A DNA stretch of 64,000 nucleotides from IMG/VR virus record IMGVR_UViG_3300045988_162923; one strand, given 5' to 3'. The position numbers and the translations under genes are program-made. The notes under the pieces are model-generated. The model did no database searches, was not told where the DNA came from, and saw nothing but the letters and a program-made list of their open reading frames with translations. Position 1 is the first letter of the stretch. The number at the start of each line of letters is the position of its first letter. Origin of the DNA: a virus. Below are positions 2,909-63,872 of this stretch, piece after piece.

Positions 2909-2937
2909 TATATAAAGAGTAAAAGGAGGAATATGTT

Positions 2938-3471
2938 ATGGCAAAAATAGCATTTTCAAAATTAGGTTTAACTAAAGACAAATTAGATGAATTTCAGACT
3001 GTAGAATTTAATGATTAGACAGTTGAAGTAAAGCAATATCTTCCAATTGCGGAAAAAGCAGAATTAATTTCAAGAGTATTAAATAATTCAGTTGATGATG
3101 ATGCTGGATATTATAATAATCTTAAGCTAGATATGTGGCTTGCTTTAGAAATTGTTTATGCTTATTCTAATATTAATTTTACAGAAAAGCAGAAGTCAGA
3201 CCCAATGAAGTTATATGATTTATTAAGTAGCAATAAATTACTTAACTTAATTATTGGCTTAGTTCCTGAAAGCGAATTTTATTATTTAACAAAAGTGACT
3301 CATGAATTAGCAACTGCGATTTATACCTATCGCAATTCCGCGCTTGGTATTCTTGATTCTATTGGACGTGATTATAGTAATTTGAATCTTGATGCTACTG
3401 AAATTCAAAAAAAATTAGCTGATCCAGAGAATCTTACTTTATTGAAGAACGTTGTTGAGAAATTGGGTTAA
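2938..3471 (+). CDS. putative tail assembly chaperone (177 aa, one in-frame TAG)
   Basis: A strong RBS precedes it. The gene sits immediately upstream of the tape measure gene and is small and acidic. It ends at TAA 3469-3471. The function is inferred from synteny only. Confidence 0.45.
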
Positions 3472-3602: not shown

Positions 3603-6600
3603 ATGCCAAAACAATTGAATGTGAATTTAGCTTTTACTGCGGATACCGGAACCGCACGAAGCTAGTTACAAGAGTTGTAGAACTCTTTAACTCGTTTGGT
3701 AAATACTTCTACTAAGCAATCAACTGGCTTAGGTTTAACAAAAGAATTAAATGATGCTACTACTGCGGCGGCTGAATTAAAAGTACATTTAGATTAGGCT
3801 GTTAATGTAAATACTGGTAATTTAGATTTTTCTAAATTAAGTGAATCATTGAAACGTAGTGGTAAGACATTATCTGAATATGGTGAACAATTATAGAAAT
3901 TAGGTCCAGATGGACAAAAAGCATTTTAGCAATTAACACAATCTATTACTAATGCTGAAATTCCTATTAAGCGTTCTAATGCTGCTGTATAGGAGTTATG
4001 GACTTCATTAAAGAATACTGCTCGTTGGCAAATGTCATCTAGTATGCTTCATGGATTCATGGGAGCCATTTAGTCTGCTTATGGGTATGCTAAAAATTTA
4101 AATGAATCTTTAAATGAAATCCGTATTGTTACTGGGCATAATATTGATTATATGGATAAATTTGCCGAAAAGGCAAATAAAGCCGCAAAAGCATTAAGTG
4201 CGACGACATTAGACTATACTAATGCTTCTTTGATTTACTATCAACAGGGTTTAAGTGACCAAGAGGTAGAAGATAGAACAGCAGTTACTTTGAAAATGGC
4301 TAATGTAGCTAATGAAAGTGCTACTACTATTTCTGAGCAATTAACTTCTGTATGGAATAACTTTTATGATGGTTCTGAATCTTTGGAACATTATGCTGAT
4401 GCGATGGTACGTTTAGGTGCTGATACTGCATCTAGTAGTAGTGAAATTTCAGAAGGTTTATAGAAGTTCTCCTCAGTTGCTGGTACTATTGGTTTAAGTT
4501 TTGATAATGCTGCAGCCGCTTTGGCAACTATTACAGCTACTACTCGTGAAAGTGCTGATGTAGTTGGTACAGCTTTAAAAACATTATTCTCTCGTATTCA
4601 AGGTTTGAATTTAGGATAGACATTGGAAGATGGTACTGACTTAAATAAGTATTCTACTGCTTTGCATAAAGTAGGTATAGAAATTAAAGACACTGATGGC
4701 CAATTAAAAGATATGGATATTATCTTAGATGAAATGGGTACTAAGTGGAATACTTGGAGTAGAGATACTCAAACTGCTTTAGCATAGACTGTAGCTGGTG
4801 TGCGTCAATATACTCAATTAATGACATTAATGAATAATTATGATTTTTATAAAGAGAATGTTGAACGCGCTAAGAATTCTGAAGGTTCTTTACAAAAACA
4901 AGCAGATATTTATGCTGAATCTTGGGAAGCTGCTCGCGACCGCGTGCGTGCCGCTTGGGAAGCTATTTATAAAGATTTGGTAAATGATAAAGCATTTATT
5001 TCTATTTTAAAGAATTTTGAAAAAGTTTTAAGTGGAGTAGATTTATTAATAAAATCTTTAGGTGGGTTAAAAGGAGTTATTTTCACTTTAGGGGCAATTG
5101 CAACGAAAGTTTTTCATAATCAAATTGCTTAGAGTCTTACTGATTTAAGTTATAATTTAAAATCTATGATTAAAGCAGGAAGAGAGTCTATTAAGAATGA
5201 ACGTATTGATTTTCTTAATAAAGCTTCTGAAACTACAGCTAATAAAGAATATTCAACAGAAGGCGAAAAAGCGCGTAATGATGGATTAAGAAAAGAATTA
5301 GAATTATAGATAGATATAATTGAAAATTCAGATAAGATGAGTGAATCTGAATTAAAAACAAATTAGATTTTATTAGATAGAATAAAAATTTTATCATAGC
5401 AAAGAGTTAAGATGGCTGAAGCTTATGAAACATCGAAAAATAAAGTCGGTGAATCAATGTATCAAGGCCGTCTTGATATGTATGTAGCTAGAGATGATAA
5501 AAATTTAGATAGCGAAAAAATTAAAAATTTAAATAAAGAATATTTAAATTTAACTTCTCGATTAAAAACTACAATTAAATTAAGAATTTCTACAAAAGAT
5601 GCTTTAAATTAGTTAAAAGGTATTAATGAAGAATTGTCCAATGCAGAACGAAAGAAAATGGTATTACAAACTATTATTCCAAATGATACTTAGGGTTTAA
5701 CTGCGGGAATAGTTAAAGATATACAAAAAATGGTTGAAAATCTTGATGAAGCAGCTTTTAGCGGAGATGAATTTGAAAATACTTTAGCAAAAATAGAAAA
5801 AGAATTAGTACGTATATAGACAGGCGCTGAAAATGGATTAGATGGATTATAGGTGTCTGATTCTACAATTCAAAATATGATACAACATTTACAAGAAATG
5901 TATCGTAATTAGAATAATTTAAATAATGGAACAGATGAGTTAAATTCAAAATATGAACATTTAAAAGAATTAATTAAATAGGCTTAGGGATAGCAAAAAA
6001 ATTGGGCAGATGGTATTGTTAATATTGCTAATTCTTTAAGTTCAATGGCTAGTATTTTTAATACAATTAAAGGAGTAATGGAAACTTTAGAAGATCCTGA
6101 TACCTCTTCTTGGGAAAAATTATCCTCTGTATTAATGGGTATTGGTACAATAATTCCTATGATTACTATGATGTTCAATAAAAATACAATCGCTTCATAT
6201 GCGGCAGCAGGAGCGCACATTGCTTAGGCTATTGGACTTAAAAGTATAAATTTGGCTGCTGAGGGAGCAACAGGAGCTATAGGAGCATTTACTGCTAGCA
6301 TTGGTGTTTTATTAGGTGCTGTAGCAGTTGCAGTTGGAGTTATTGCAGCTTTAGCTTTTATTATTAAAGAAGTATATAATTCTTCAGCAGAGGGAAAATT
6401 AAAAAAAGCTTAGTAGGCTTTAGATAATTTAACAGATGCTGCTACGGAAGCTAAAACTGCGGCTGATGGGTTAAAGAATTCAATAGAGTCTTATGATAGT
6501 GCTATAGATAAATTAGAAGAATGTAAGCGTGGAACCGAAGAGTGGAAATAGGCTTTAATTGAGGCTAATGATGCTGCTTTAGAAATTATCAATACTGCAT

Positions 6601-9600
6601 CAAATTTATCAGGAAATGACATAAGAAATTTATATTCTCGAGATAAAGATAATTTAATCCATTTTGATACAGAATAGTTATCTTAGTTATAGACTAATGC
6701 TACTTTACAAAGTTCATTGATGAATTATGCAGTTGCTGCAGGATAGAATGATGTTGCCTAGGCTACTTTAAATGAAAAAAGTTTAGATTTAAGCGGAATT
6801 ATAGCCGGGCATACTACAAAAGCTATCGAAGGAGGACAATCTCATAATCCAGATAGCTATAGACTAGGTACTTCAGAAGTATAGCAAATTATTTTAGATA
6901 ATTTAGATAAATTATCTGAATCTGTACCTTTAAATGAATTTAAAAATTATTTAGAAGAGTGTGGAATTAAACTACACAGTGTTACTGATGATTAGTTATC
7001 TGCTTGGCAAACAAGTATTTAGAATATGGCGCAAGAAGCAGATGGAGCATCTGCTAAATTAGAATTATTATCTTAGTTAAAAGCAGATGAAATTTTAGGT
7101 GATGATTATACCACTGACGAAAAGAATTTTGCTGCTAAAGCAAATGCAGCTTTTATTACTCAATAGGCGGATTATTATAAACGTTTAATGGGACATGATG
7201 GTGCTTTTACTGAAGTAAATTAGGCTCACCCAGATAAAAAAGTAGATTTAGGTGGTATTAATAGATGGTCTGGAAGTCAGAATGATGTTTATTAGTATAT
7301 TTTAAAAGCTTTATAGGAGTCTGGTTAGAATATTTATGCAGCTTCTAGTAATGCTATTCGAGGAACAGATACAAATCGTTCTTTTGCTTTTACTTAGAAT
7401 GGTGAAGAAATAGTTTATACTAAAGAAGAAATTGCTAATATGTTAGCAGCTTCTGATGCTATTTAGTAGATGGGCAATAGTGCTAGTAAGGCACGAGAGT
7501 TGCTTTCTAAATTTAGCGCAGATTCAATCGGTAAAGTAACCACTTTAGTTAATGATTTCAATTAGAAGACTAAAGAGTTCGATGTTACTTAGCTTATGGG
7601 AGAATGGGATTCTAAAATGTTAAATGAATTTTAGAATGCTATTGGCGATGAGACTAATGGAGTTAATGTTGCTGAAATAGTAACTAAAAAAATGGGTCTT
7701 ACTCCTGAAGAATTTAATAATATTTTAGACACTTTAGGAGTTGAAGATGCTGGAGCATAGTTTGGTTAGGCTATTTTAGATGGATTACAAGGAGTAGAAG
7801 ATTCTTTAAATCCAGAAACTTATTCTAAAAAATGGCGTGAGAATAGTACTGATACAGAAGGTAACAGCATATTAGCTGATTCATTTGATGAATTATTACT
7901 TAATGATGATAAAACAGGATTAAAGTATAATGGTATTAGCAGGAATTAGATAGCTGAATTTGCTTAGACTTATGAAGCAATTTTTAATAAATTTGGTACT
8001 GAAGGCTTAAATGTAATAGATAATTTACTTAATCAATTTGGCGATGAGGCTGGTAAAGTTGCTGGAGTTATTGGCGATATTGACTGGTCTAGTGACACTT
8101 CTTTAAAAGATTTTCAATCCGCATTAAATAATGTTGGAGTTACTACAGCGGGTATAGATTTAAGTAAATTTATTACTTAGATGGATGAAATTTATAAAAT
8201 TGCTGATTCAGATGCTTTATCCAAAGCATAGTCTAATTTTAAAGAAATAAATGATATAGTAAAAAATCTTAAATTAGGAGATACTATTTCACCAGAAAAT
8301 TATGCTAAATTGGGTGATGGAGCTGATTAGTATTTTACTAAAATGGCCGATGGCACTTATAAATTGACTACAGATACTAAAGCTTTTTATGATATTGTTA
8401 TGCGTCAAAGACGCGATGAATTTACATAGGCTTATAAAGATGCTTAGTCTAAAGCTATGGAATTACAAACATAGAAAGAAAATGCTACTCAAGCTTTACA
8501 AGGAACAACTACAGAGGAATTGGGTAAATCAGCTTATAAAGTTGATGATAATTCATATAATGGTTTTAAAGTAAAATAGTAGCTGAATTTCTTATAGGCT
8601 ATGGGTTATGACCAAGGGAAGATTGACAATTGGGCTGCTGATGCTGAAAATGGTCAAATGTATAAAGATACTTTAAATGAAATTGCTGGAGCTGTCCGCA
8701 ATATGACAATAGAGTATGAAAATTTAGATTCAGCAAGGGAAAAAGAAAATAATACCGCAGAAGAAGCTAAAACAAATATTTTAACTACTGTAACTTCTAT
8801 TAAAGATTTGAAAAATGAAATTGCTTCTAATGATATATTAGGAGAAGAAGATTATGGTAAAGGTCTTAGCTTATTAGCTTTATAGTATGAAGAATGTAAA
8901 GACGCTTATACTAATTATGTTAATGTTGTAAAAACTGGTAATCCTTATTTAATAGAATAGGCAAAAAAAACTTTAGAAGAGTCTATTAGAGCATAGGAAG
9001 TTTCTAAATTAGGAATAGAAACTTTAGGAGATTTAGCTAAAGCATAGCGTAAAGGTTAGATCACTAAAGATGATATTAATGCGTATGATAATATAGCGAA
9101 AAAAACCTTAAAAGGTCAATAGGCATTGGCTACTTATAATAAAGAAATGGCCAATGCTCGAAAAGGTACTGACGATGCCACTAAAGCTGCTTAGAAATAT
9201 AAAAGAGCTATTGAAGAAATCGAAGTAACTGATTTAGCAAGTGATATTAATAACTTAATGACTGAGTTTAGTAAACTTACTAAAGAAGAACAAGAAGGCG
9301 ATAAAGGTTTTGATAAACTTACTTCAATTGCTGAAAATTTAAAAGATATTTTTGGAGCAGATTTTGATTATTATGATGCTAATTTTGTTAAGGGACATTG
9401 GGATTTAATTAAATAGTATTTAACAGGAACTTTAGATGAATAGCGCCAGGCTTCCATTGAATTAGCTATGTTAGGTAAAACTAATACTTAGACTATGACT
9501 GAAGCAATTAGTAATTCATTTGCTGAAGTTGGTGTAGATGCTAGTCAATGTACTGGATTAATCCAACAGGTAGAATCTACTTTACAAAATGCTAATTTTA

Positions 9601-12600
9601 ATAAAGATGGATCTATTAGTTTAGATACTGCTAATGCAATAAGTAATTTAATAGCTTTATCAGATGATGCTACATAGGTTGCTGGTATTTTAAACTCTAT
9701 TTTAAATACAAATATTGAATTTGATCCATCTGATTTTATTAAATTATAGCAAATGATGTAGACTTTAGCCAATCCTAGCGCAGATCCAAGAGCTAAATCA
9801 TATATAGTTAATTAGGGAATTAAAAGTATTATTTTAAAAGCTAAATCTAATAGTGTTGCGCCAGCCGTTCCAGGTACTTTAACTGGCCCCACAGGTAGTG
9901 GCGGAGGATCTCAAAAAGAAAAAGATACAAAAGATTGGAATTAGGATAAAGATCGTTATCATGATTATGATAAAGCTATTGATCAATCTACTCGAAGTGT
10001 TAATAAATTAAGTAAAGCAGTAGATAGATTATATGGAGCTAGTAAAGTATCAGCTATTTAGAAATAGATTAATGCTTTAAAAGAAGAAAATAAATAGTAT
10101 GAAAAGAAATTGGCGAAAGCTAAAGAATATTTAGCATTAGATAAATAGGCTTTACAAAATAATACTTATGGATATGAAGTTTCATTTAATGAAAATGGTT
10201 TTGTTAATTTAGAATAGACTTTAAATAAAGCTTATGAAGATGTAAAGAAAGCTTAGGCAGCATATAATAAAGCACTAACCGATGATGCTAAAAAAGTTTA
10301 TGAAGAAGCGCAATAGAAGTTTGAGAATTTCAAAAAGTTAATTGAATAGTATGAAGAAACTCTTGAATTAATTTAGAACTTAGAAGATCAGATTGAAGAT
10401 AATCAAGATGAAATCATGGCTAAAAATTATGAAAAACTTACCGTAGAAGTTGAATATAAAATTTAGCTTGATGAAAATGAATTAAAGAAATTGGATTATT
10501 TCTTTAATAAGTTATCTGATAATATTTATAAAGCTGCTGAAGCTTTTGGATATTTACAAGGTTAGATTGACCCTACTTTTGGGAAAATGTCTTCTTATGA
10601 AGATTTCTATAATAAGTTAGAAAGTTCTTATGCTAATGGAGAAATTACACAGGCAGATTATATTGATGGTCTTCAAAATGCTTATGATAGTATTTTAGAT
10701 AATTTACAAGCAGTTCAAGATTTAGATAAAGAAATGCTTGAATACTATGGTAATACCTTAGATTTAGCTGAAGATGAGTTATCTAAATATACTGATTAGA
10801 TGGAACATCTTACTAGTGTATTAGATCATTATCGTTCTATCCTTTCTCTATTGGGAAGAGATACAGATTATACGAAAGTATTAAGTGTGTTAGAAGGTAA
10901 TGCTTAGACGAAACGTAATAAGTTTGATACTTCTAAAGCTTGGTATGAATCTCTTAAAGCTGAAAGAGATGCCGCGGCTGCGGCGCTTGCTTAGGCTAGT
11001 GATGATGCTGAAAGAGAATTGTTACAAAAGAATTATGATGCTATTGTAGCAAAATTTAATGAGGCAGAAGAACAGATGCTGTCAGACGCTGAAGCATATG
11101 GTGAAGCCATTAAAGAAGTTTTAACTACTAAAATGGAACAAGCCGCAGAGAATATGAATAAAGCAATGACTGATGGTATGGGTTGGGACGCTTTAAATGA
11201 TTCTTTAGATAGATTGTCTAAATATCAAGATGAATATTTAACAAAGACTAACCAAATTTATGAAATGAATAAATTGCTTAATGATGTTAATAAAGCTAGT
11301 AATAAAACTAATAATCAAGCGGCAAAAGATAAATATTATCAGTTCTCTAAAGAAATTGAATAGTTAAAAGAAAAAGATAAATTAAGCTAGTTAGAATTAG
11401 ATATTGCTCAAGCTAAATATAAAGTTCTTCAAGCATAGATTGCTTTGGATGAAGCTCAAAATGCGATGGGTAAGGTCCGCTTACAACGCGATAATGAAGG
11501 TAATTTTGGTTATGTTTATACTGCGGATTAGGATAAGATAGATGATGCTTAGCAGGCTTTAGCTGATGCTGAGAATGATTTATATAATATTCGTCTTAAC
11601 GCCACTAATAAATATGGTCAATAGAAATTACAATATGAACAAGAGCTAGCTGAAAAATTAAAAGAAATTGATGAAAAGGCTAATGAAGATGCCCTTTACC
11701 GTGAAGGTAATTATCAAGCTGATCGCTAGAGAATTATTGATGAATATACTCAATTAATTTAGGCTTCAAGCGATTTATATAGAATTGCGCAAGAAGAAGA
11801 TTCTCGTGTGGTTCAAGATGCTTGGGTTAATGCTTATGATGAAATTATTGATAGCGGTGATCAATGGAAAACAGCAATTATTGATTATACCGGTTAGATT
11901 AATAATGCTTTCCAAGAGTGGCAAGCTGAAACTGATAGACTTACTGATTTGGTAGGTAAAGATTTAGTTGATACTAAGAATAAAGTTAATGATGTTACTA
12001 ACGCCAGTGATCAATTAAAGGATGAAGTTATTAATAAAGTTGTTCCCGCTTTGAGTTAGGAACTATAGGCTGTTCGTAATGCTACAGAAGCTTATGCTCG
12101 TTAGAGATAGGAAATTATAACTTTAATTTCTTATTATGAATAGTTAATTAATAAGATTCAATAGGCTATTGCTGCGCAAGCATCTATGGATGTTGGGTCT
12201 AATAGTTCATCTCCTGATTATGATGATTATGATCCAAGCGTTGACTATTCCGCTTTAATGGGTACTGTACCTGTTGGATCGGAACTTTATAATAAATATA
12301 AAGCATATCGTGATAGAAAAATATCAGAAGGTAATTATAATGATATGGCATCTACTTCTCGTGTTAATGCTTTTTACGAAAAAGGATATACTTTAGGTCA
12401 AGGTCCTTTTGCTGGGTATTCTAATTTTACTTAGATTCCTGATTGGCTATGGAAATAGACAGTAGGATTTAGAACTGGTGGTTACACTGGTCAATGGGGC
12501 GATAGTGGCAAATTAGCAATGCTTCATGAAAAAGAATTAGTTCTTAATAAAGAAGATACTTAGAATATGCTAAGTTCTATTAAGATGGTTCGTGAAATTG

Positions 12601-12800
12601 CTTCTGAGATTGATTTACGCAGTAGATATACTACAATGCCAATTAATCCAATTTACAGCACTTTTGGAACTGGTAATGATATATTAGAACAATAGGTTCA
12701 TATTGATGCTAGCTTCCCGAATGTGACTGATAGGAATGAAATTCAAGAAGCATTTAATACATTAATTAATGTAGCTTCACAATATGCTAATCGTAAATAA
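3603..12800 (+). CDS. tail tape measure protein, about 3065 aa, with roughly one in-frame TAG per 30-40 codons
   Basis: RBS AAAGGAG precedes ATG 3603. Track ORFs 4152, 4800, 5412, 6045, 8601, 9495, 10587, 11019 and 12186 all share this frame. Every interruption I read was TAG, never TAA or TGA. The gene ends at TAA 12798-12800. It has a coiled-coil, Ala/Gln/Leu-rich composition and hydrophobic glycine-zipper segments at about 6000-6400, as tape measure proteins typically do. Confidence 0.85.
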
Positions 12801-53835: not shown

Positions 53836-53864
53836 ATTATAACAAAAAATTTTAAAGTCGTCAA
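53836..53864 (-). promoter_or_regulatory. consensus promoter TTGACG-17-TATAAT on the minus strand
   Basis: The minus strand reads TTGACG (plus 53859-53864), a 17-nt spacer, then TATAAT (plus 53836-53841). It lies upstream of the gene starting at 53805 and overlaps the 3' end of nrdG. Confidence 0.55.
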
Positions 53865-54346
53865 TTTTTATCTGATTTTAAATAAATAATATGCTAATTT
53901 TTACTTCCACGCATGGGTAATGATACATCTCTTTGCTCTTGGATATATGGACCATCAATCAAGACATCAATACTGCTAAGGATTTCTTGAAGTTTTCCAT
54001 TATCTTTTTGTTTAATTAAATCATCATAATAATATCCAGTCCATACATAAATTTTTGTATTAGGGAGTTTTTCTTTTATAGTACGAACCAAAAGTAAAGT
54101 AAGTAATTGATTCTTTTCACATAAAGGTTCTCCACCCATAATACAAAAATTTCGATGAATACCATTTGCCTATAATGCTTGAGTAATTTCAGTAAATATA
54201 TCACTCGTAAATTCTTTACCACCATCAAAATCCCATGTTTCAGGGTTATGGCATCCTTCACAATGATTAGGACAACCTTGAACAAAAAATGATACACATA
54301 CTCCCGGGCCTGCGGCAATATCATTTTTTATAATTCCTGCGTATTT
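53861..54346 (-). CDS. nrdG: anaerobic ribonucleotide reductase activating protein NrdG
   Basis: It reads ...GIIKNDIAAGPGVCVSFFVQGCPNHCEGCHNPETWDFDGGKEF...IMGGEPLCEKNQ...WTGYYYDDL...GSKN(Q)HIIYLKSDKN. The radical-SAM CxxxCxxC motif is there, two TAGs are read through, and it ends at TGA 53861-53863. No in-frame ATG exists upstream of the conserved N-terminus. The likely initiator is ATT at 54346-54344, 7 nt after GGAGGA. Confidence 0.65.
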
Positions 54347-54352
54347 AATAAG

Positions 54353-55015
54353 TCATTCCTCCAATTCTAAATCTAAATCATGGATATCATCTTCATCATC
54401 AACTTCTACATAATACAGAAAACATTCACAATTAGTATGATAAGGTGGCTCAGGAACATTTTCATCAGCTGGATATTCGCCTATATATTCAGCACAAATA
54501 CCATCATCATCTACTCCCGTCCCTTCAATTACCTTTATTGTAGCTTTTGGAGCAATTTTATTAAACATTACTTTATTTCTTAGATAATTAGTTTCATTAA
54601 TTAATAAGCGCTAAAACATATTCTAAGCGTAATTTTTTAATGAAATAATAGGAATATTTTCTAATCTTTTTTCTTCTAATTTATCTAAATAAAAGATAAT
54701 TCTTTCATCTAATGTTTTACCGTCATTGGCAAAAGTTAAATTTTTTATATCTTTTAATTCAAACTAAGCTGTAGCTTTATAAATTTTTTTTAATTCTGAA
54801 GAAGTGATGGAGTAAATCTAAGTTAAAGACTCATAAAATAAATTAATTAATTCATCTTTATGATTAATAGTATTAATAATATTTTTATTATTAATCCAAG
54901 AATAAATTAATTTAGTAATTTTTTCCATTTGTCTATCTCTAATAGAAAAAATCTAATCATTCATATTAGATAATTTTGTTTTTAGTTTAGGACGTTTTTT
55001 AACAGATGATTTCAT
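54353..55015 (-). CDS. hypothetical protein (220 aa) with an acidic Cys-containing C-terminus, in frame with nrdG
   Basis: RBS GGGAGGTTATGGA precedes ATG 55015. Five TAGs are followed by track ORF 54353..54568. It ends at TGA 54353-55. The nrdG body begins at the very next codon in the same frame. Confidence 0.5.
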
Positions 55016-55359
55016 TCCATAACCTCCCAAGAACAACAATATAAACTACAGCAAGGAATAATTATTTTTTTTAATATTTCTTCATTATTATAATTTTTAG
55101 ATATTTTTACTTTATAAAGTCTATAACCTTTAGTATTCCAGGTTATAGGTAACCATATCCATCGCTCATTATTTTCTTGCCATTCTATACGAGTTTTTGA
55201 TACTCTGATTGGTATAATATTATTTTTATTTAAATAATTATAAATTTCTTGTGAATTGTCGGTTATATAAGCACATACCACTATCTAATTAGAACAAGGA
55301 TATTTTCTTCCTTGTTGCTAATTAAAATAGTTTGCTAAATCATAAATTAGCTATATCAT
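55012..55359 (-). CDS. Trp-rich hypothetical protein (115 aa)
   Basis: ATG 55359-55357 overlaps the nrdD terminal TGA as ATGA. It has three TAGs and ends at TGA 55012-55014. Confidence 0.45.
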
Positions 55360-57617
55360 TCCATCTACCCCGTATGTTTTACTCGTGCTTCTACTTCTTT
55401 TTGTTTACCATAGTTAAAAGCAGTTTTATAGTTTCCAGTTAAATAACCGGTTACACGGCGCAGCTATTGAATATTAGAACTGCCGCATTCAGGACATTTA
55501 TCATTAAATTCATCACAGTATCCGCAATCAAGACAAGTATCATTAGGCACGTTTACTGCGAAATAAGGAATATCCTTATCCATGGCATAATTAACAATTT
55601 GTTCAAGGGCTTTAATGTTATGTTTTACTGTTGAATCTAATTCTACATAAGTAATACAACCAGCAGAGGAATAACCAGTTAATTGGCTTTCAATATCAAT
55701 TTTATCAAATGGTGACATCTTTTCCCATACAGGAACATGAATACTATTAGTAAAAAATTCTTTATCTGATACATTCTTAATAACACCATATTTTTCTTTG
55801 AACTTATTCATAGCAGTATAACAAAGGTTTTCCGCAGGAGTATAATATACACCAAAATTAAGCTTATATTTCTCCTTAAATTCTGCGCAACGACGTTTAA
55901 ATAATCCTTCAATGCGCTTAGCTAGTTCCATACCTTCTTTAGTTGTCTGGTCTTTACCAATAAGAATTTGAAGGGCTTCAGCAAGACCAATCTACCCGAT
56001 AGCCAAAGTACCATGTTTAAGCGCACTTCTAATCCCTTCTTCTGGAATATAGCCAGCCATTAAATGATTCTCATACATAAACTTAGCAGATTTCGGGTCT
56101 TGAGAACAAATCCATTCAAATCGTTCCATCAATTGAATTCTTGCTTCATTAATCTTTTGATCTAAAATTTCAAAGAAAGCTTCATCAACTTCCATACCCA
56201 TGATATGACATTCTTGATTTGCTATCATAGCTAAGGTAGGGAGAATAATAGTTACTGGACAAATATTACCACGACCATCTTTTAGCTAACCGAAACCATT
56301 AATATCGTATCCATTGGCTGTTCTACATCCCATTGTAGAAAAATAGGTGCGTGGGTCATTAATATCATATCCCGCATTTCCAGACCAATCAACATTTGCA
56401 TAGTTAGGATATAATCTTTGAGCGGTTGAGCGTAATGCGAGTTTAAATAAATCGTAATTTGGATCTCCTTCTTTACGATTAACACCTTCCATACACTGAA
56501 AAATTCCGCAAGGGAAAATAGATGTTTTATGTAATTTACCAATACCTTCAATGGACACATCCAAAAGTGCTTTAGTAATCATTCTTCCTTCTGGAAGAGT
56601 ACAAGTGCCATAATTAATAGAAGTAAATGGTAACTAATTACCTGAACGAGATTGTAAAGTATTAAGATTATGATACATACCTTCTACTGCTTGATGGACT
56701 TCTTTTAAAGTCATATCCATAGCATATTGATATACTTTATCAAAATCTCCAGCATCATCTACTTCATTTAAATAAGCTGAATAATCATTAATTGGAATAT
56801 CTATAATTTTTTTATAAGTATTACTATCTTCTAAATAATTATCTAAATCCCAATTACAATTACATAAGTATTTCATACCATCTCGATAATGCTTATAAAA
56901 AGATTTACGAACATAAGGAACCATAGTCCAATCAAGATGGGTCGCACTTACTCCTCCGAATTGAGAAAGGCTTTGAATTTGGAAAATAACAGCTACTAAT
57001 TGGAAAGCTGTATTTACTGAACCAGCTGGACGCACATCTGTCTAACGTGTATTAAATCCATTAGCAAGTAAATCATCAAAAGGAATACTTAAACAATTAT
57101 GAGAACCAACATAATAAGCATCAAGGTCATGAGTATAAATCATATTATTTAAATGATTATCTCTTGCCATTGGTGATAAGATATAATCTAAAGCTAATTG
57201 TTTAGTTACTACACTACTGGCTTCACCAATACGTCCGCCAAATGATGCTTCATCAACGTTAGCATTTTGATTTTTAATATCTTTACCATCAAGCTTTTTT
57301 CTAATGGCTTGAATAAAATCATCTTTCTTTTCACGAGCAACTTCTTTTTTATATCTATATCTAATATATGCACGAGCTACATCACGACGCTCAGAGCGCA
57401 TCAAATAATCTTCAATCCAATCTTGGATATCTTCTACCCCTACGCTACCATCAGGGAAATGATTTGCTTGACGTTCAATGTCATTAGCGATATCTTGAGC
57501 AGTATCATTTTCATAAAGCTATCCATCAACTTCAATAAATGCTTTATTAATAGCATTAATAATTTTATTTTTATCAAATAAAACAATTGTGCCGTTGCGC
57601 TTTATAATATAAATCAT
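55356..57617 (-). CDS. nrdD: anaerobic ribonucleoside-triphosphate reductase NrdD (about 753 aa, about 6-7 in-frame TAGs)
   Basis: RBS GGAGGAATATAA precedes ATG 57617. The N-terminal ATP-cone reads MIYIIKRNGTIVLFDKNKIINAINKAF. Track ORFs 57042..57404, 56634..57035, 56286..56582, 55992..56228 and 55464..55931 all share the frame. The C-terminal Zn-ribbon and glycyl-radical motif read ...CLDCGYCDEFNDKCPECG...LRRVTGYL. It ends at TGA 55356-55358. Confidence 0.8.
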
Positions 57618-57685: not shown

Positions 57686-58258
57686 TTAATTAAATCCGTC
57701 TGTCCAATCGCGGATTTGCCTTCCCATAGCATATACAGCGGGATAAAAATCTTTTTTAATTTCATTATTAATAGTAGTATAATTAAAATCTGATAAATCA
57801 GAAAAATCAATTTCATCTGCTTTAAAACGTCTAAATATTTCTTCAATATTAGGATCGCTTTCTCGACTTAGCTGACGAATTAATCTTTCTTTATCTGAAG
57901 CTTCAATATAGAATACTTTTAAATCAATACGAGAATCTTTCATTAAGCTTTCAACTCCCGCAGGGTTAAATACTCCAATATTAATTTTGTTTTCATTTAA
58001 TGAATTAATGGCAGTACCATACCCCCAAGAGTTAAATACTGTCGCTTCTAACATTTTATTTTCTAATACTAATTGAGAAAATTCTTCATTAGAAACATAA
58101 TGATAATTAATTCCTTCTTGCTCTCCTTCTCTAATTGGACGAGTAGTATAACTAATTATTTCATTTAAATTTTTTTCGGTGTCATGGTGAAGGATAGCCT
58201 TCATAAGACTATCCTTCCCGCTTCCCGCTTTGCCCATAATGGCTACAATTTTATACAT
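57686..58258 (-). CDS. gmk: guanylate kinase-like nucleoside monophosphate kinase
   Basis: Intact 190-aa ORF. P-loop GKAGSGKDS and the guanylate-kinase signature TTRPIREGEQEGINYHYVSNEEF are present. Its ATG follows the DnaE TAA by 3 nt. Confidence 0.7.
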   Translation of the reverse strand: MYKIVAIMGKAGSGKDSLMKAILHHDTEKNLNEIISYTTRPIREGEQEGINYHYVSNEEFSQLVLENKMLEATVFNSWGYGTAINSLNENKINIGVFNPAGVESLMKDSRIDLKVFYIEASDKERLIRQLSRESDPNIEEIFRRFKADEIDFSDLSDFNYTTINNEIKKDFYPAVYAMGRQIRDWTDGFN

Positions 58259-61200
58259 CTTCTTCTATTCCTCCCTGATAACGAGTATTACGTAATGTAA
58301 TAGTTCCATCATCAAAAATTTCATCAATTTTATATAACTGGTGACCAGGAGAAGAAGCATATTTTTTAGCTATAAAATTATCTCCTTGGCGCACGCCCAT
58401 AACTACAATCATATTTCCTCGGTTGAACCAGGACTTTTCAACGATATGCTTTACTCCATCCGATCCTTTTTCTGAAATTTGTTTATCAAATAAACTGAAA
58501 TATTCTTTTCTGAATTTTACTTCAACAGGACCAGTAGTAGTAAGAATAGTAACAGTACTTTTAGTTTTATTTTTAGCAATACACGTACCGCAGATTGTAT
58601 TTAATTTATAAATATGAATCGTTTTACCACCTTTAGTGAAACTTCTATCTACTTCTGGTTCTTGCGGAAGAGCAAAGAAATCTGCGAATCCATATTTTTT
58701 ATTATTAATGTCTTTTAATTCGTGATTGTGGTAATAGAAGCAAAGCACTTCCATTTCCCATGCTGATAAATTATTTTTACCAGTATATTTATTCCAATCT
58801 TCTTTGAAAATAACTGCGTTTAAATTTTCAAGAATTTCTGTTTTATTCTCATTAATCCAATCGCGGAATACATCCATCCAAGGTTGATAGACTTTTTTAT
58901 CCCATATTTTTTGGTCTAACTTCGCGCCCTCTTCAATTAAATTATCTTCACCAATTTCAACTAAGAAATTAATTGCTCTCATATCTAGTTTATAAAAACT
59001 TGCTGTATCTTTACAAACTGCTTTTAAATATCTATTAAATTCAAAAACACGACGAGCCATAATTTGTTTATCAGTATCTTCTGGTAATAATTTATATTTA
59101 ATTAAGCTACTCATATTCTGTAAAGTAATACGACTCTTTTTATCACAAGTTTCCCAAATATACCAGCCCATTAATAATTTTCTATCCATCATATTATCAA
59201 AAGCACCGCCTTTAATAAGAGATACCATAGCTTGTTTACTAGGCTTAATTTTATATAAAAAATCTTTTGGAGAAATATATGGACGGTTAGTAATAATAGT
59301 ATTAACTAAATCATCACCAACATTTAACATTCCTTTTAATCCAAAAAGAATTTTATTATTTTCAATGTCAGGAGCAAAACCAAACTTAGATTTATTAATA
59401 TCTGGCAAACCGATTTCAATACCTGCTTTTTGAATATCACTAATAGCTTTAGCAATTTTTCCATAATCAGTTGAAGCAGTTCTTCTAATTTTTGCGCTCT
59501 TATCTGGTAAATCTTCAAATGTTACACCATTTGCTAAATCGTCACCTTCAGGAGCATAAATATCGACTAGCTCTTCTTCCGTATTATCTTCCAATGAACC
59601 ACTATTAACAATTAAACAAGCGGTATCCCAATAAATAGGATTATAATTTATTACTAAATAAATCATTTGAATTGCTACAAAAGAATAAGGTAAAGAATGA
59701 TTTAAACTAAAAGCATAACCTAATTGTGGAGCAACCGCAATTTCCCAGAAGTATTCAGCAACTTTAGGATTATCAAATTTACTGAATACTTGCTCTTTTA
59801 ATTGCGGGATTTTTGACATTTGTTTTTTAGCAACAACTTTACGAGCACTATTTGCTTCGCCTAAAGTAAATCCCGCAATATCCATGAGGATTTCCATCAT
59901 TTGTTCCTGAATAGGACAACAACCATAGTATTTATCACAATGCTTATGAAATTTATCAATCAAATCTTGTGGTAAATGATTTTGCTTCATTTCAGCATCA
60001 AATACTTGAATACCTTGATGCTGAATTCGATAATATCTATCTTGCTGAGATTCTTTGCCTTTTTCAGACATTAAACGCATCATAGCATTTGCTGCCGTCA
60101 TTTCCATAGGATCTTGCGGTTTTAGCCTCTTAGCAATTGCTAATCCAACTCCAGTAGAGAACTGGAATACATCAAGTACATCGCCTGCCGCCAAGTGATC
60201 CCAAATACGTTGATCTGTTGTGTCTATCACTTCTGGATGAATATACTTATTATAAAATTCTCTTAAAGGTAAGTCAGGAATTTGATTATCTTTTAATAAT
60301 AATTGATAACAAGTAATTATTTTATCAGAAGCTTCAGTTACAAGGAAATCATATTTAGTATCGCCAGCCGCTTCCGCTTTATGCAAATCATAACAAGTGA
60401 TAATATCACCACTGGGAGTGCGCATAAAAGATGCTGTTTCAAATGGGTCATCACCATATAAAATAACGCCAGAAGCATGAGAAGAACGTTTATTAATAAT
60501 ACCTTCAATATAAATAATAATATCTAATAAACCATCATATTGATTTACTTCTCTAATAAAAGCTTGAATTGGCTTGCGGTCTTTTTCTTCATTGCCATAA
60601 ATAACATCATGGATTGGCCATAAAAATCCTCTTTCTTGAGGAATTAGAGAAGACATATATTGTGCTTGATCATTATCAATACCTTCTGGAAAATCTTCTG
60701 ATCTATATCCACGGCAAGCTGTTAATACCGCAGATTTAGTTCCTTCAGTACCAAATGTAGCAACTTGGACTAAGCCTAAATCACCACGTTCATCACGAAT
60801 TGCTTTAAAAATAGCAGGACGCTTACTTGGCGCAAGATCAATATCAATATCAGGTAATTCAGCACGTTCTTTATTTAAAAAACGCCAATAAGGTAAACCC
60901 CAACGAATAGGATCAAGCTGTGTAATACCTAATAAATAATTAGATAAAAAACCTGTTGCTGAACCACGGCCAGGACCTACAATAGAACCACATTTCCAAA
61001 ATAAATCAATATAATGTTTAAAAGTATTAAAATAAGCAAACAAACAATCATCCAATTTTTCACCAATATCTTTAATAATATCAGCTTCAATTTCAAGACG
61101 ATTTAAATAAATATCTAACTTATCATCTGAAATACTTTTATCATACATCTTTTCTAATAAAGACATATAACATTCATTAACCCAATATCTTTCCTATGGG

Positions 61201-62246
61201 TTATCACTCATTAATAAGCTACATAAAATAGGATATTTTTCTGTGCGCTCAAACCAACCAGCTAATGATTGAGGATAATCAGTTACTTCTACTTTTGGAA
61301 TAATTTGCTTTCTTTCTAAAGAATAAAAAGAAATTTTACTTTGAATTTTTTGAGTATTATCTAAAATCCAATCTAAAATTTCTTTTCCTGATTTATTACT
61401 ATCCCAAGTGTTAGCATCATTTTCCATTAATTCAAAGATTTCATCGCTTGTCATTAAATGCGCAAATTCATAGAAAGTATCAACTTCTCGTTCGCCTTCT
61501 TTAGAATTTAAATACGCTTTATGAATTGCTCTATCTTCTTTTGTTAAATAATGAGAGTCAGTACCAATTACCATTTTCAATCCAGTAGATTGAGATATTT
61601 TATAAATTTGTCTATTAACAATCATCTGGTCTTCTTTATTAGAAGGCGCACACTCAAGATAAAAATCATCTTCACCAAATACTTCAATACAATAATTAAT
61701 AAAATCCATTATTTGAATTGAATAATTAGTTACTGTATTTTGGTCATTAACTAAATTAGCTTCATACATTGGAAGTAAACAACTACCAAGTTCTCCACCA
61801 ATACAAGCTGTAGTAGCAATAACATGACCTTTATATTTAGACATTACATCTTTTAATTCGCTTTTTAAAGTAGGAACACGTTCCATACGTCTATCAACAT
61901 AACTATTAATCCAAGCAATAGAACTTAATTCTCTTAATGCTTTATGACCAATAGCATCTTTAGCTAATAATAAAAAGTGATAATATTTTTGTCCAGTTTG
62001 ACGAGTTTCAGTTAAATAGATTTCATTACCAAGTGCGATAGTAAAATCAGGATTTGTTTCCTATAATTTCTTCGCATATTGATTAACTTCCATATGCGCA
62101 GATAAGCATTCATGGTCAGTAATTGCTATTCCAGATAAACCTAATTCGATAGCTTTATCAATTAATGCTTGAGGACGATTAATTGAGTCTAATAGTCTAA
62201 TATTAGAATAATGAGTGTGATTATGAATACCAAAGTAACTTCTCAT
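58251..62246 (-). CDS. dnaE: DNA polymerase III alpha subunit (DnaE-type replicative polymerase), about 1331 aa with two in-frame TAGs
   Basis: Track ORFs 62061..62246 (PHP start, HNHTHYS), 61194..61886 and 58251..61166 share one frame. They are separated only by TAG at 62061-62063 and 61194-61196. RBS GAAAGGATAATTAA precedes ATG 62246. It ends at TAA 58251-58253. Confidence 0.85.
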
Positions 62247-62678: not shown

Positions 62679-63872
62679 TCATTTCTTTACAATAACAATT
62701 TTTTCTTTCGCTCTAGTCACCATAGTATATAAATACTATGTATGTGTTAATTTATCATGTGGATGCCCTTCTTCAAACCCTAATACTTTATCGTATTCAC
62801 TTCCTTGTGCCTTCCAACAACTAATAGCATAAGCATAAGCAAAATCAAAAGGAGGATCTGGACACATCTAATTTTTTCTCATTTTATAGCATTGTGGTCC
62901 AGTTAAAGTAGCCTAGCCACTTTTTAATTGTTCATAATCAATAGGGACATCTTGGAAATAATCTCCATCTTCTAGGTCAAAAGTAGCATTCATATAAATA
63001 ATTGGTTTATCATAAATATACAAAGGTACTCTTTCAACTGTATTATAATAATTAGTTAAAGTACCAATCATACCATTTGTTAAAGCCCAAGTTCCAGAAG
63101 CAGAAGAAAAATCCCAATTATTATGTAAACTAATAATTTTATCACCAATTTCTGGTTCATCAGATGTAAAGCCTTTTAATTTTCTGACAGTTTGATTTAA
63201 TAAAGTTCTTCTATCATTAGTCGCACAAATGATTTGGTCTGCCCATTCATACATTCCTTCTCGAAGCTAAGACAAATTAATAATCATAACCTAATTTCCA
63301 TCAGGTTTATAAGAGTAGATAGGCTTTCCATCTCTAATCCACATTGACAACCGAATAATTTCGCTATCTTGCGCTTGCCGCATAATTTCATCTAAGAAAA
63401 TATGGGGTTTATCTAAAACATGGTTATTATCTGCTTCTTCTATTGGAGGTAGCTAACCGGGGTCTCCAGCTGCTATAATATAAATACCATGACTTAATAA
63501 AAGATGCCACATAGCTGAAGGAAGCATAGACACTTCATCAACTACAATTACTTTATATTGAGATAATTCTTCATTAGATTTTGGAGTAAATTTATATCTT
63601 CCATTCGGTAGCATACGAGCTTTATATAATAATTTATGAGCTGTAGTAGCATTAGGACATCCTTTCTATTGAAGAACAGTAGCAGCTTTTCCTGTAAAAG
63701 CAACATAGCATACTTCTGTTTCTGGATCAACATCTAAAGCTGAAATAATAAATTTAATTAAAGTACTCTTGCCACTTCCTGCATAACCCGCTATGCAAGT
63801 CCAACGTTCATGGTTTTTATATCTTTCAACAGCAATTTTTAATCCCTATTCTTGTTTCGCAGTTAAAATCAT
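62679..63872 (-). CDS. Dda/RecD-like SF1 DNA helicase (about 397 aa, seven in-frame TAGs)
   Basis: Walker A AGYAGSGKST, Walker B VVDEVSM and motif III AAGDPG(TAG)LPPI are present. The TAG in motif III sits at the invariant Gln. Track ORF 62913..63254 is an internal piece. It ends at TGA 62679-62681. Confidence 0.75.

Follow-up and report, generated by a model that had tools for sequence, protein, structure and literature searches.

Recoding of the stop codon TAG as glutamine (Gln, Q) is already established in phages. Mass spectrometry demonstrated it in crAss-like phages (PMC9523058), and terminase alignments over recoded phage clades gave Gln as well (Borges et al., bioRxiv 10.1101/2021.08.26.457843). 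Here we analyse 64,000 nucleotides of viral DNA, IMG/VR record IMGVR_UViG_3300045988_162923 (the whole stretch is called the window below), in which a Dda/RecD-like helicase gene carries TAG in place of the invariant Gln of motif III. The window is a further lineage of this known phenomenon. With a probability of about 0.93, judged from comparison of sequences, TAG is here a sense codon for Gln (NCBI genetic code 15) while TAA and TGA still terminate.

Like the window, the crAss-like, Lak and 'gemstone' clades (bioRxiv 10.1101/2021.08.26.457843; PMC9523058) come from human gut, have TAA and TGA stops, and carry in-frame TAG, aligned with Gln, in structural and many other genes, with more TAG in late genes. 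Suppressor tRNA(CUA) is present in some of their genomes; in the window's family it was found on two more distant contigs. The window lineage differs from these clades in having a DnaE/YorL-type polymerase and a gene order resembling that of SPbeta and Enterococcus phages. In-frame TAG occurs in 39 of its 41 open reading frames (ORFs), far more than the 26% of genes with in-frame stops in the TAG-recoded Sapphire clade (~201 kb; bioRxiv 10.1101/2021.08.26.457843). The window phage agrees with this clade, which is defined by terminase phylogeny, in genome size but not in this proportion, and the window contains no terminase gene.

The nearest GenBank phage by polymerase (41%) is phAss-1 (proposed genus Phassvirus, OQ749652), likewise a TAG-recoded human-gut phage with NrdD and NrdG. 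It is placed in the NCBI 'Caudoviricetes code 15 clade', was re-annotated with table 15, and its suppressors were assigned to Gln by its authors (PMC10607447). These suppressors have G73 and the GGGGAG/CTCCCC acceptor stem in common with that of a relative of the window (contig L391, described below). The window is nevertheless not a Phassvirus, since it has no nucleotide similarity to phAss-1 (members of the genus share 82-86%), and its polymerase and NrdD are 41% and ~40% identical, respectively. The phAss-1 genome has 136 kb as against ~200 kb for the window phage, and its two Sup-CTA tRNAs and tRNA-Leu lie directly upstream of NrdD (loci L062/L063), where the window has no tRNA. The GenBank record OQ749652 itself holds standard-code calls, many of them short 'hypothetical protein' fragments.

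A relative with the standard code is the cultured Enterococcus faecium phage VRE9_4 (PP680570; L381, L382), which has no in-frame TAGs and shows 25-56% identity. Together with SPbeta-like phages it shares with the window the order of genes for Dda-like helicase, DnaE-type polymerase, nucleotide kinase, dUTPase and RuvC-like resolvase, and also the PHROG 2729 capsid protein, PHROG 30570, an 8-kb tape measure gene and PHROG 32343/30026 tail proteins. These phages encode class I ribonucleotide reductase, whereas that of the window is class III. The gene order in common with VRE9_4, which extends over both the replication and structural genes, suggests a Bacillota host for the window phage.

In-frame TAG codons and the residue they encode

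With the standard code, 28.4 kb is covered by stop-to-stop ORFs of at least 100 amino acids; reading through TAG raises this to 67.5 kb (coverage is the sum over six frames and may exceed the window length). Read-through then yields 41 ORFs, terminated by TAA (32) or TGA (9), with TAG never required as terminator; 368 in-frame TAGs are spread over 39 of them, and two of them have 3065 codons with 107 TAGs and 2579 codons with 40 TAGs, respectively. Restored coverage, alignment of TAG with Gln and retention of TAA and TGA as terminators are the traits of code 15 found in the window. Recoding of TGA as a second codon was considered, as TGA at 54353-54355 splits two ORFs in the same frame. It was rejected: relatives have an ordinary NrdG ATG at this place, and reading through TGA instead of TAG gives 34 kb of coverage, which is little gain. 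The genes and sites that bear on the identity of the inserted residue are as follows.

62679-63872, minus strand: Dda/RecD-like superfamily 1B (SF1B) helicase, 397 codons, 8 in-frame TAGs, TGA stop
63453-63455, minus strand: TAG where motif III of the helicase (GDxxQLPP) has its invariant Gln
53861-54349, minus strand: NrdG, the activase of class III ribonucleotide reductase, with 2 in-frame TAGs, ATT as apparent start and TGA as stop
53894-53896, minus strand: TAG in place of the Gln conserved in RGSxNQ, the C-terminal motif of NrdG
55356-57617, minus strand: NrdD (anaerobic ribonucleotide reductase), 753 codons, 7 in-frame TAGs
56634-56636, minus strand: TAG at NrdD site 328 (SGN-TAG-LPF)
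56286-56288, minus strand: TAG at NrdD site 444
55992-55994, minus strand: TAG at NrdD site 542 (AIG-TAG-IGL), the one conserved site unlike Gln outside the family
58251-62246, minus strand: DnaE/YorL-type DNA polymerase, 1331 codons, only 2 TAGs

The helicase retrieves Dda, RecD2 and two further solved SF1B helicases in phmmer search and is 41.5% identical to the Dda-like helicase of VRE9_4. Its Walker A motif GYAGSGKST, motif II VVDEVSM, motif III GDPG-TAG-LPPI, and the C-terminal QGSE and TRA motifs, KAQGSEYD and VTRAK, align with those of Dda, RecD2, 9kwf, 8jx6 and nine phage helicases. The original prediction placed a TAG at the invariant Gln of motif III. The minus strand indeed reads GCA GCT GGA GAC CCC GGT TAG CTA CCT CCA ATA (63470..63441), that is A-A-G-D-P-G-TAG-L-P-P-I, and the residue is Q in 13 of 13 standard-code homologs. 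These comprise four solved SF1B helicases (GDPAQLPPV, GDNKQIRPV, GDTDQLPPV and GDSYQLLPV) and nine helicases of cultured phages (Enterococcus, Staphylococcus, Xylella, Escherichia, Burkholderia, Pseudomonas and Pantoea phages). Relatives of the window have CAG (26), CAA (21) or TAG (7) at this position and no other codon.

A similar situation is found at the C-terminus of NrdG. This radical SAM protein has 7842 homologs at E<=0.001 and an iron-sulfur motif, CxxxCxxC (CPNHCEGC), that can be aligned with pyruvate formate-lyase activase; the gene for NrdD is on the same strand, ~1 kb upstream of that for NrdG. The TAG predicted here (53896..53894) stands on the minus strand in CGT GGA AGT AAA AAT TAG CAT ATT ATT, so the C-terminus reads R-G-S-K-N-TAG-H-I-I-Y-L-K-S-D-K-N-TGA. 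Q occupies the TAG position, within the RGSxNQ motif, in 133 of the 141 residues that align among 150 representatives of clusters formed at 50% identity, and in all 67 bacterial genomes compared, in agreement with the conservation claimed earlier. The H-I-I that follows TAG matches the conserved R-(I/V)-I of homologs, indicating that the protein runs on past TAG. Codons at the site in relatives are CAA (24), TAG (21) and CAG (9), without exception.

As to the NrdG start, 54 related loci have ATG (49), TTG (4) or GTG (1), and the window has ATT (54347-54349, minus strand) preceded by GGAGGA; either ATT serves here as a rare start codon, or the start has been damaged. The junction upstream of NrdG, where an ORF ends with the TGA at 54353-54355, is also unlike that of the closest relative, L017.

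The third site of this kind is in DnaE, which is ~41% identical to its closest polymerases, those of phAss-1, VRE9_4 and SPbeta-like phages (SPbeta YorL). Its TAG at 61194-61196 (site 351) is CAA in 59 of 59 relatives and Q in VRE9_4. Alignment with standard-code homologs, proposed as a check on the prediction, thus returned Gln at helicase motif III, in NrdG and at DnaE 351; NrdD gave exceptions, site 542 being aromatic and site 328 being Q or S in bacteria. The remaining TAG sites of helicase, NrdD, NrdG and DnaE are variable.

We then turned to codon exchange within the family. From alignments of every ORF from 47-64 kb (replication block) to 61 related loci, we recorded which codon of the relative faces each TAG of the window; 1-12.8 kb of the late block was compared with 80 related loci in the same manner. 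For scoring, the residue profile of the TAG columns was compared with substitution profiles of the 20 amino acids from the same alignments. In the replication block, TAG is opposed by CAA (462), TAG (249), CAG (166), GAA (163) and AAA (118). CAA and CAG together account for 628 of 1667 cells, TAT and TAC for 29 and TGG for 6; the enrichment of Gln over background is 11.7-fold. The log-likelihood per cell averages -2.41 for Q, -3.35 for K and -3.37 for E. In the reverse direction, TAGs of relatives stand opposite Gln codons of the window at a rate of 26.6 per 1000 cells, whereas for any other single residue the rate is no more than 5.7. The late block gave CAA 774, TAG 296, CAG 201 and GAA 536, with Gln again the best fit and the ranking unchanged; its smaller Gln margin is expected of poorly conserved proteins. 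Frequent exchange with CAA, which is two mutations away from TAG, points to synonymy rather than mutational proximity. In VRE9_4, Q is the commonest residue at 40 aligned TAG sites (7), followed by E, T and K (5 each). The claim that Gln is inserted, and not Trp, Tyr or others, is therefore upheld as the best fit in both genome blocks, with Tyr, Trp and Ser far worse.

NrdD matches the solved NrdD 8p23 over its full length (E=1e-124). Public databases already translate the window lineage with Q at TAG, and the 753-residue public versions of NrdD have Q at all 7 TAG sites; indeed the best 120 matches of the homologue search are all family members translated in this way. As such proteins are code-15 predictions, the argument would be circular and they were not counted as evidence. 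At site 328, solved NrdDs have Q (the T4 alignment is ambiguous by one gap) and the family has CAA (28), CAG (18), TAG (6) and ACT (1). In the 42 relatives with NrdD 65-90% identical, sites 328, 444 and 542 switch only among TAG, CAA and CAG, and at site 542 this holds for every relative with at least 65% identity. Tyr was raised as a candidate for the TAG residue by sites 444 and 542 and was rejected, as TAT at these sites is restricted to a distant NrdD subgroup of no more than 45% identity. Only for a lineage that decodes TAG as Gln is there a route by single steps from TAT over TAG to CAG.

Suppressor tRNAs of the family

Decoding of TAG would be accomplished by a phage-encoded amber-suppressor tRNA (anticodon CUA) located elsewhere in the genome and presumably charged with Gln by the host glutaminyl-tRNA synthetase (GlnRS); a host without GlnRS might use a non-discriminating glutamyl-tRNA synthetase (GluRS) with GatCAB instead. 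By analogy with L391, the tRNA region of the window lineage would be situated ~40-50 kb past the window end. A tRNA(CUA) with Gln identity elements, for which a search was proposed with the original prediction, was found on two more distant contigs of the family.

One of these is IMGVR_UViG_3300024270_001991 (L391), whose DnaE is 63% identical to that of the window. Its tRNA(CUA) gene at 2919-3009 (the same gene as L136 7931-8021) belongs to a cluster of 23 tRNAs and lies beside tRNA-Gln(CUG) and tRNA-Gln(UUG). It has 91 nt, with a variable region of ~21 nt, and its D arm is common to the tRNA-Gln(CUG) of the cluster, which is its best match within the cluster by a modest margin. Determinants recognized by E. 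coli GlnRS are C34, U35, a weak 1-72 pair, G2-C71, G3-C70, G10 and G73, and E. coli amber suppressors are charged with Gln (PMC9976931). The L391 suppressor has C34, U35, A37, G10, G2-C71, G3-C70, G73 and an unpaired 1-72, so that most Gln determinants of the GlnRS-charged E. coli supE-type tRNA-Gln(CUA) are present, except G36 and U38. The other contig, 3300021254_000022 (L185; capsid protein 69% identical), encodes a tRNA(CUA) with acceptor stem UGGGGAU...AUCCCCA-G. When CUA tRNAs were compared with other tRNAs by global similarity across loci, their nearest isotypes were scattered over many isotypes. The supE system differs from that of the window in scale, as supE acts weakly on rare nonsense mutations whereas TAG occupies about half of late-gene Gln positions in the window; the phage suppressor has, in addition, an extra hairpin in its variable region.

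This hairpin is a feature of long (84-94 nt) phage tRNA(CUA). It is small and exposes a 7-nt loop, YUCUGAR, equal to the anticodon loop of tRNA-Gln(CUG). Examples are:

L391, 2919-3009: hairpin-bearing CUA tRNA
L063, 12442-12532: hairpin-bearing CUA tRNA
L079, 3000-3090: hairpin-bearing CUA tRNA
among L064-L300 and L471-L475: ~55 further loci with hairpin-bearing CUA tRNAs

Of 79 distinct phage CUA tRNAs sampled without bias, 15 are long, and 14 of these have CUGA in the variable region. Among all 55 distinct long CUA tRNAs, CUGA is present in 54, the loop is mostly UUCUGAG (20) or CUCUGAA (19), and a stem of 2-5 bp closes the hairpin in 48. The stem covaries (GCC/GGC, UCC/GGA, UGC/GCA, GCG/CGC, CCA/UGG, GUC/GAC, CUG/CAG). 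Such a hairpin occurs in 45 of 52 long CUA tRNAs as against 1 of 112 Ser, Leu and Tyr tRNAs with long variable arms from the same loci. No account of it was found in the searched literature, which is not proof of novelty. The hairpin might ensure that Gln is attached, through GlnRS or GluRS/GatCAB, or might prevent charging by SerRS, LeuRS or TyrRS. That suppressors of this family decode TAG by means of a hairpin supplying the G36-containing Gln anticodon signal missing from CUA is a doubtful proposal, suggested by the loop sequence.

Several further observations concern the surroundings of these tRNAs. On one phage contig (L079), a transfer-messenger RNA gene at 2404-2752 lies ~250 nt upstream of the CUA suppressor, and another contig has both a CUA tRNA and an ochre-reading UUA tRNA (L100 1214-1284). 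Relatives of the window encode an 820-residue protein resembling major vault protein (MVP; Pfam MVP_shoulder), at 14200-16695 in L391, near the tRNA cluster, and at 10001-12445 in L482, adjoining genes for RNA ligase, Thg1, RNase T and NAD salvage. The protein is 68-99% conserved over many gut phage contigs of 160-200 kb. Used as a probe, its gene led to a contig of 40% GC and not to the 29% GC window lineage; a similar probing with the MetK gene, which stands beside the tRNA cluster of L391, recovered that contig only.

TAG use along the window and rival readings

Distribution of TAG along the window was examined for two blocks, structural (late) and replication genes. The following features are concerned.

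1-47277, plus strand: late (structural) block, whose 14,782 codons include 308 in-frame TAGs
3603-12800, plus strand: tape-measure-like giant ORF, 3065 codons, 107 in-frame TAGs

The giant ORF is matched at its two ends by the VRE9_4 tail length tape measure protein. The Gln-friendly context quoted for it in the prediction, GEQL-TAG-KLGPDGQKAF-TAG-QLTQ, is present, its first TAG being at 3894-3896. Per 1000 codons, the structural block has 20.8 TAGs and the replication block 9.9, which corresponds to 49% and 25%, respectively, of the sum of TAG, CAA and CAG. CAA and CAG constitute 2.2% of late-gene codons and 3.0% of those in the replication block; with TAG added, these values become 4.2% and 4.0%. 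The block totals, and these only, are thus suggestive of compensation between TAG and Gln codons. Among replication enzymes, the helicase has 8 TAGs (one of them in motif III), NrdD 7 and the RuvC-like resolvase 5. As TAG is found in replication enzymes, including a catalytic motif, suppression is not purely a late-gene device here.

TAG is nearly avoided by two genes, the polymerase (58251-62246; 2 of 1331 codons) and the capsid-type gene (493-1494; 1 of 332). Their TAG shares of TAG, CAA and CAG are 4% and 8%, with 40-80% in neighbouring genes.

A number of results weigh against reading TAG as Gln. No tRNA was detected in the window (ARAGORN, Rfam) or within 10 kb of polymerase or capsid genes in 140 related loci (60 centred on polymerase and 80 on capsid; ARAGORN). 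Pattern scans of IMG/VR did not reach the window lineage's own suppressor, the matches listed containing only more distant contigs of the family. Borges et al. (bioRxiv 10.1101/2021.08.26.457843), too, detected a suppressor tRNA in only 40% of the genomes with recoded TAG. Gene by gene, TAG frequency and Gln-codon frequency show no significant correlation (Spearman r = -0.17, p = 0.37). The majority of TAG sites are in variable columns and, taken singly, give no information, and since cells of the family table are phylogenetically non-independent, likelihood gaps should not be taken as probabilities. In 80 bacterial genomes, NrdD site 328 is S in 42, Q in 35, A in 2 and T in 1; site 542 is Y in 46 and F in 34 of them, and F, Y and Y in three solved structures. 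Site 542 changed from Tyr to Gln once in the whole clade, however, and in this respect says nothing against TAG being Gln. Finally, the suppressor of the relatives combines a long variable arm with G73, which is also typical of tRNA-Ser.

The last point could mean that TAG is a sense codon for a different residue, mainly Ser, or else Tyr, Lys, Glu or Trp, all single-mutation neighbours of TAG. This would accord with the Ser-like length of the family suppressor and its variable region, with Ser at NrdD site 328 and the aromatic residues at site 542 in bacteria, and with E and K as second and third commonest aligned residues. Yet Ser ranks only 4th in likelihood among the 20 amino acids, Tyr 18th and Trp 19th; the Tyr codons are rare opposite TAG, with TAT in NrdD confined to the distant subgroup; and the helicase motif III and NrdG sites, where relatives have only CAA, CAG or TAG, disfavour any other residue. 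Besides, the variable arm of the suppressor has a stem of only 2-3 bp and a loop of 7 nt, as against a 5-bp stem in the tRNA-Ser from the same cluster, and acceptor-stem pairs 1-72 and 3-70 convert E. coli amber tRNA-Ser to Gln identity (PMC9976931). We therefore regard insertion of another residue as highly improbable. Still further from likelihood is that TAG remains a stop and the window holds fragmented pseudogenes, assembly errors or rare leaky readthrough. Only short ORFs are obtained with the standard code, it is true, and fragmented calls of this sort are found in the record of the related phAss-1. However, frames of up to 3065 codons run across the 368 TAGs, sequence downstream of TAG is conserved (H-I-I of NrdG, the full-length match of NrdD to 8p23), the same arrangement recurs in more than 100 independent assemblies, and only TAG, not TGA or TAA, behaves so, with no ORF needing it as terminator. 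Conservation effectively refutes this reading.

The assignment of TAG to Gln may be refined in one respect, namely that TAG could have a dual meaning, acting early as a stop through host release factor 1 and later as Gln once the phage suppressor is expressed, and so serve as a timer for late or lysis genes. Such a timing model was proposed earlier (bioRxiv 10.1101/2021.08.26.457843) and is consistent with PMC9523058. The excess of TAG in structural over replication genes and its scarcity in polymerase and capsid genes speak for it, and the gradient agrees with the earlier suggestion in the literature that expression of late genes is delayed or gated by recoding. On the other hand, helicase, NrdD and RuvC-like resolvase all need suppression, so the window has no clean early/late split, and the presence of TAGs in helicase and NrdD implies that a switch must act already by the replication phase. 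We consider dual meaning quite possible, though somewhat short of probable; it would refine the assignment rather than replace it, and the inserted residue would stay Gln.

The source phage and its lineage

The window has 28.9% G+C and is part of a large (~200 kb), AT-rich tailed phage of human gut. More than 100 related contigs are present in IMG/VR, many of them 160-201 kb long, and two of them have a polymerase 99% identical to that of the window; human-gut metagenome contigs of ~200 kb encode NrdD proteins identical to the window NrdD. No nucleotide match to GenBank phages was obtained by megablast with 12 kb of the window. Structural genes occupy the plus strand from 1 to 47 kb and include the PHROG 2729 capsid-type protein, the tape-measure-like giant and tail proteins. 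The minus strand from 51 to 64 kb encodes the helicase, the DnaE/YorL-type polymerase, a guanylate-kinase-like protein, NrdD, NrdG, dUTPase and the RuvC-like resolvase. Neither release factor nor aminoacyl-tRNA synthetase genes were found by Pfam and PHROGs scans (17 of the 41 window ORFs).

At the boundary of the structural and middle blocks lies a gene for a phage response regulator (47324-48040, minus strand), with a receiver domain above the Pfam cut-off and a LytTR DNA-binding domain slightly below it. In the gap between convergent genes at 47268-47345 (minus strand), there is a weak Rfam match to BSnc120 (30 bits as against a gathering score of 114, E=0.005), which is probably a mere hairpin or terminator.

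Genes of this lineage need translation table 15, as otherwise helicase, NrdD, NrdG, tape measure and nearly all others are split. Should the variable-arm hairpin of the long suppressor tRNAs be functional, it would be relevant to the question of how amino-acid identity is retained by a tRNA whose anticodon is non-cognate, and could be of interest for the engineering of orthogonal suppressors. Together with VRE9_4, the window lineage makes a clean pair, one recoded and the other not, for the question of how a code change spreads through a genome.

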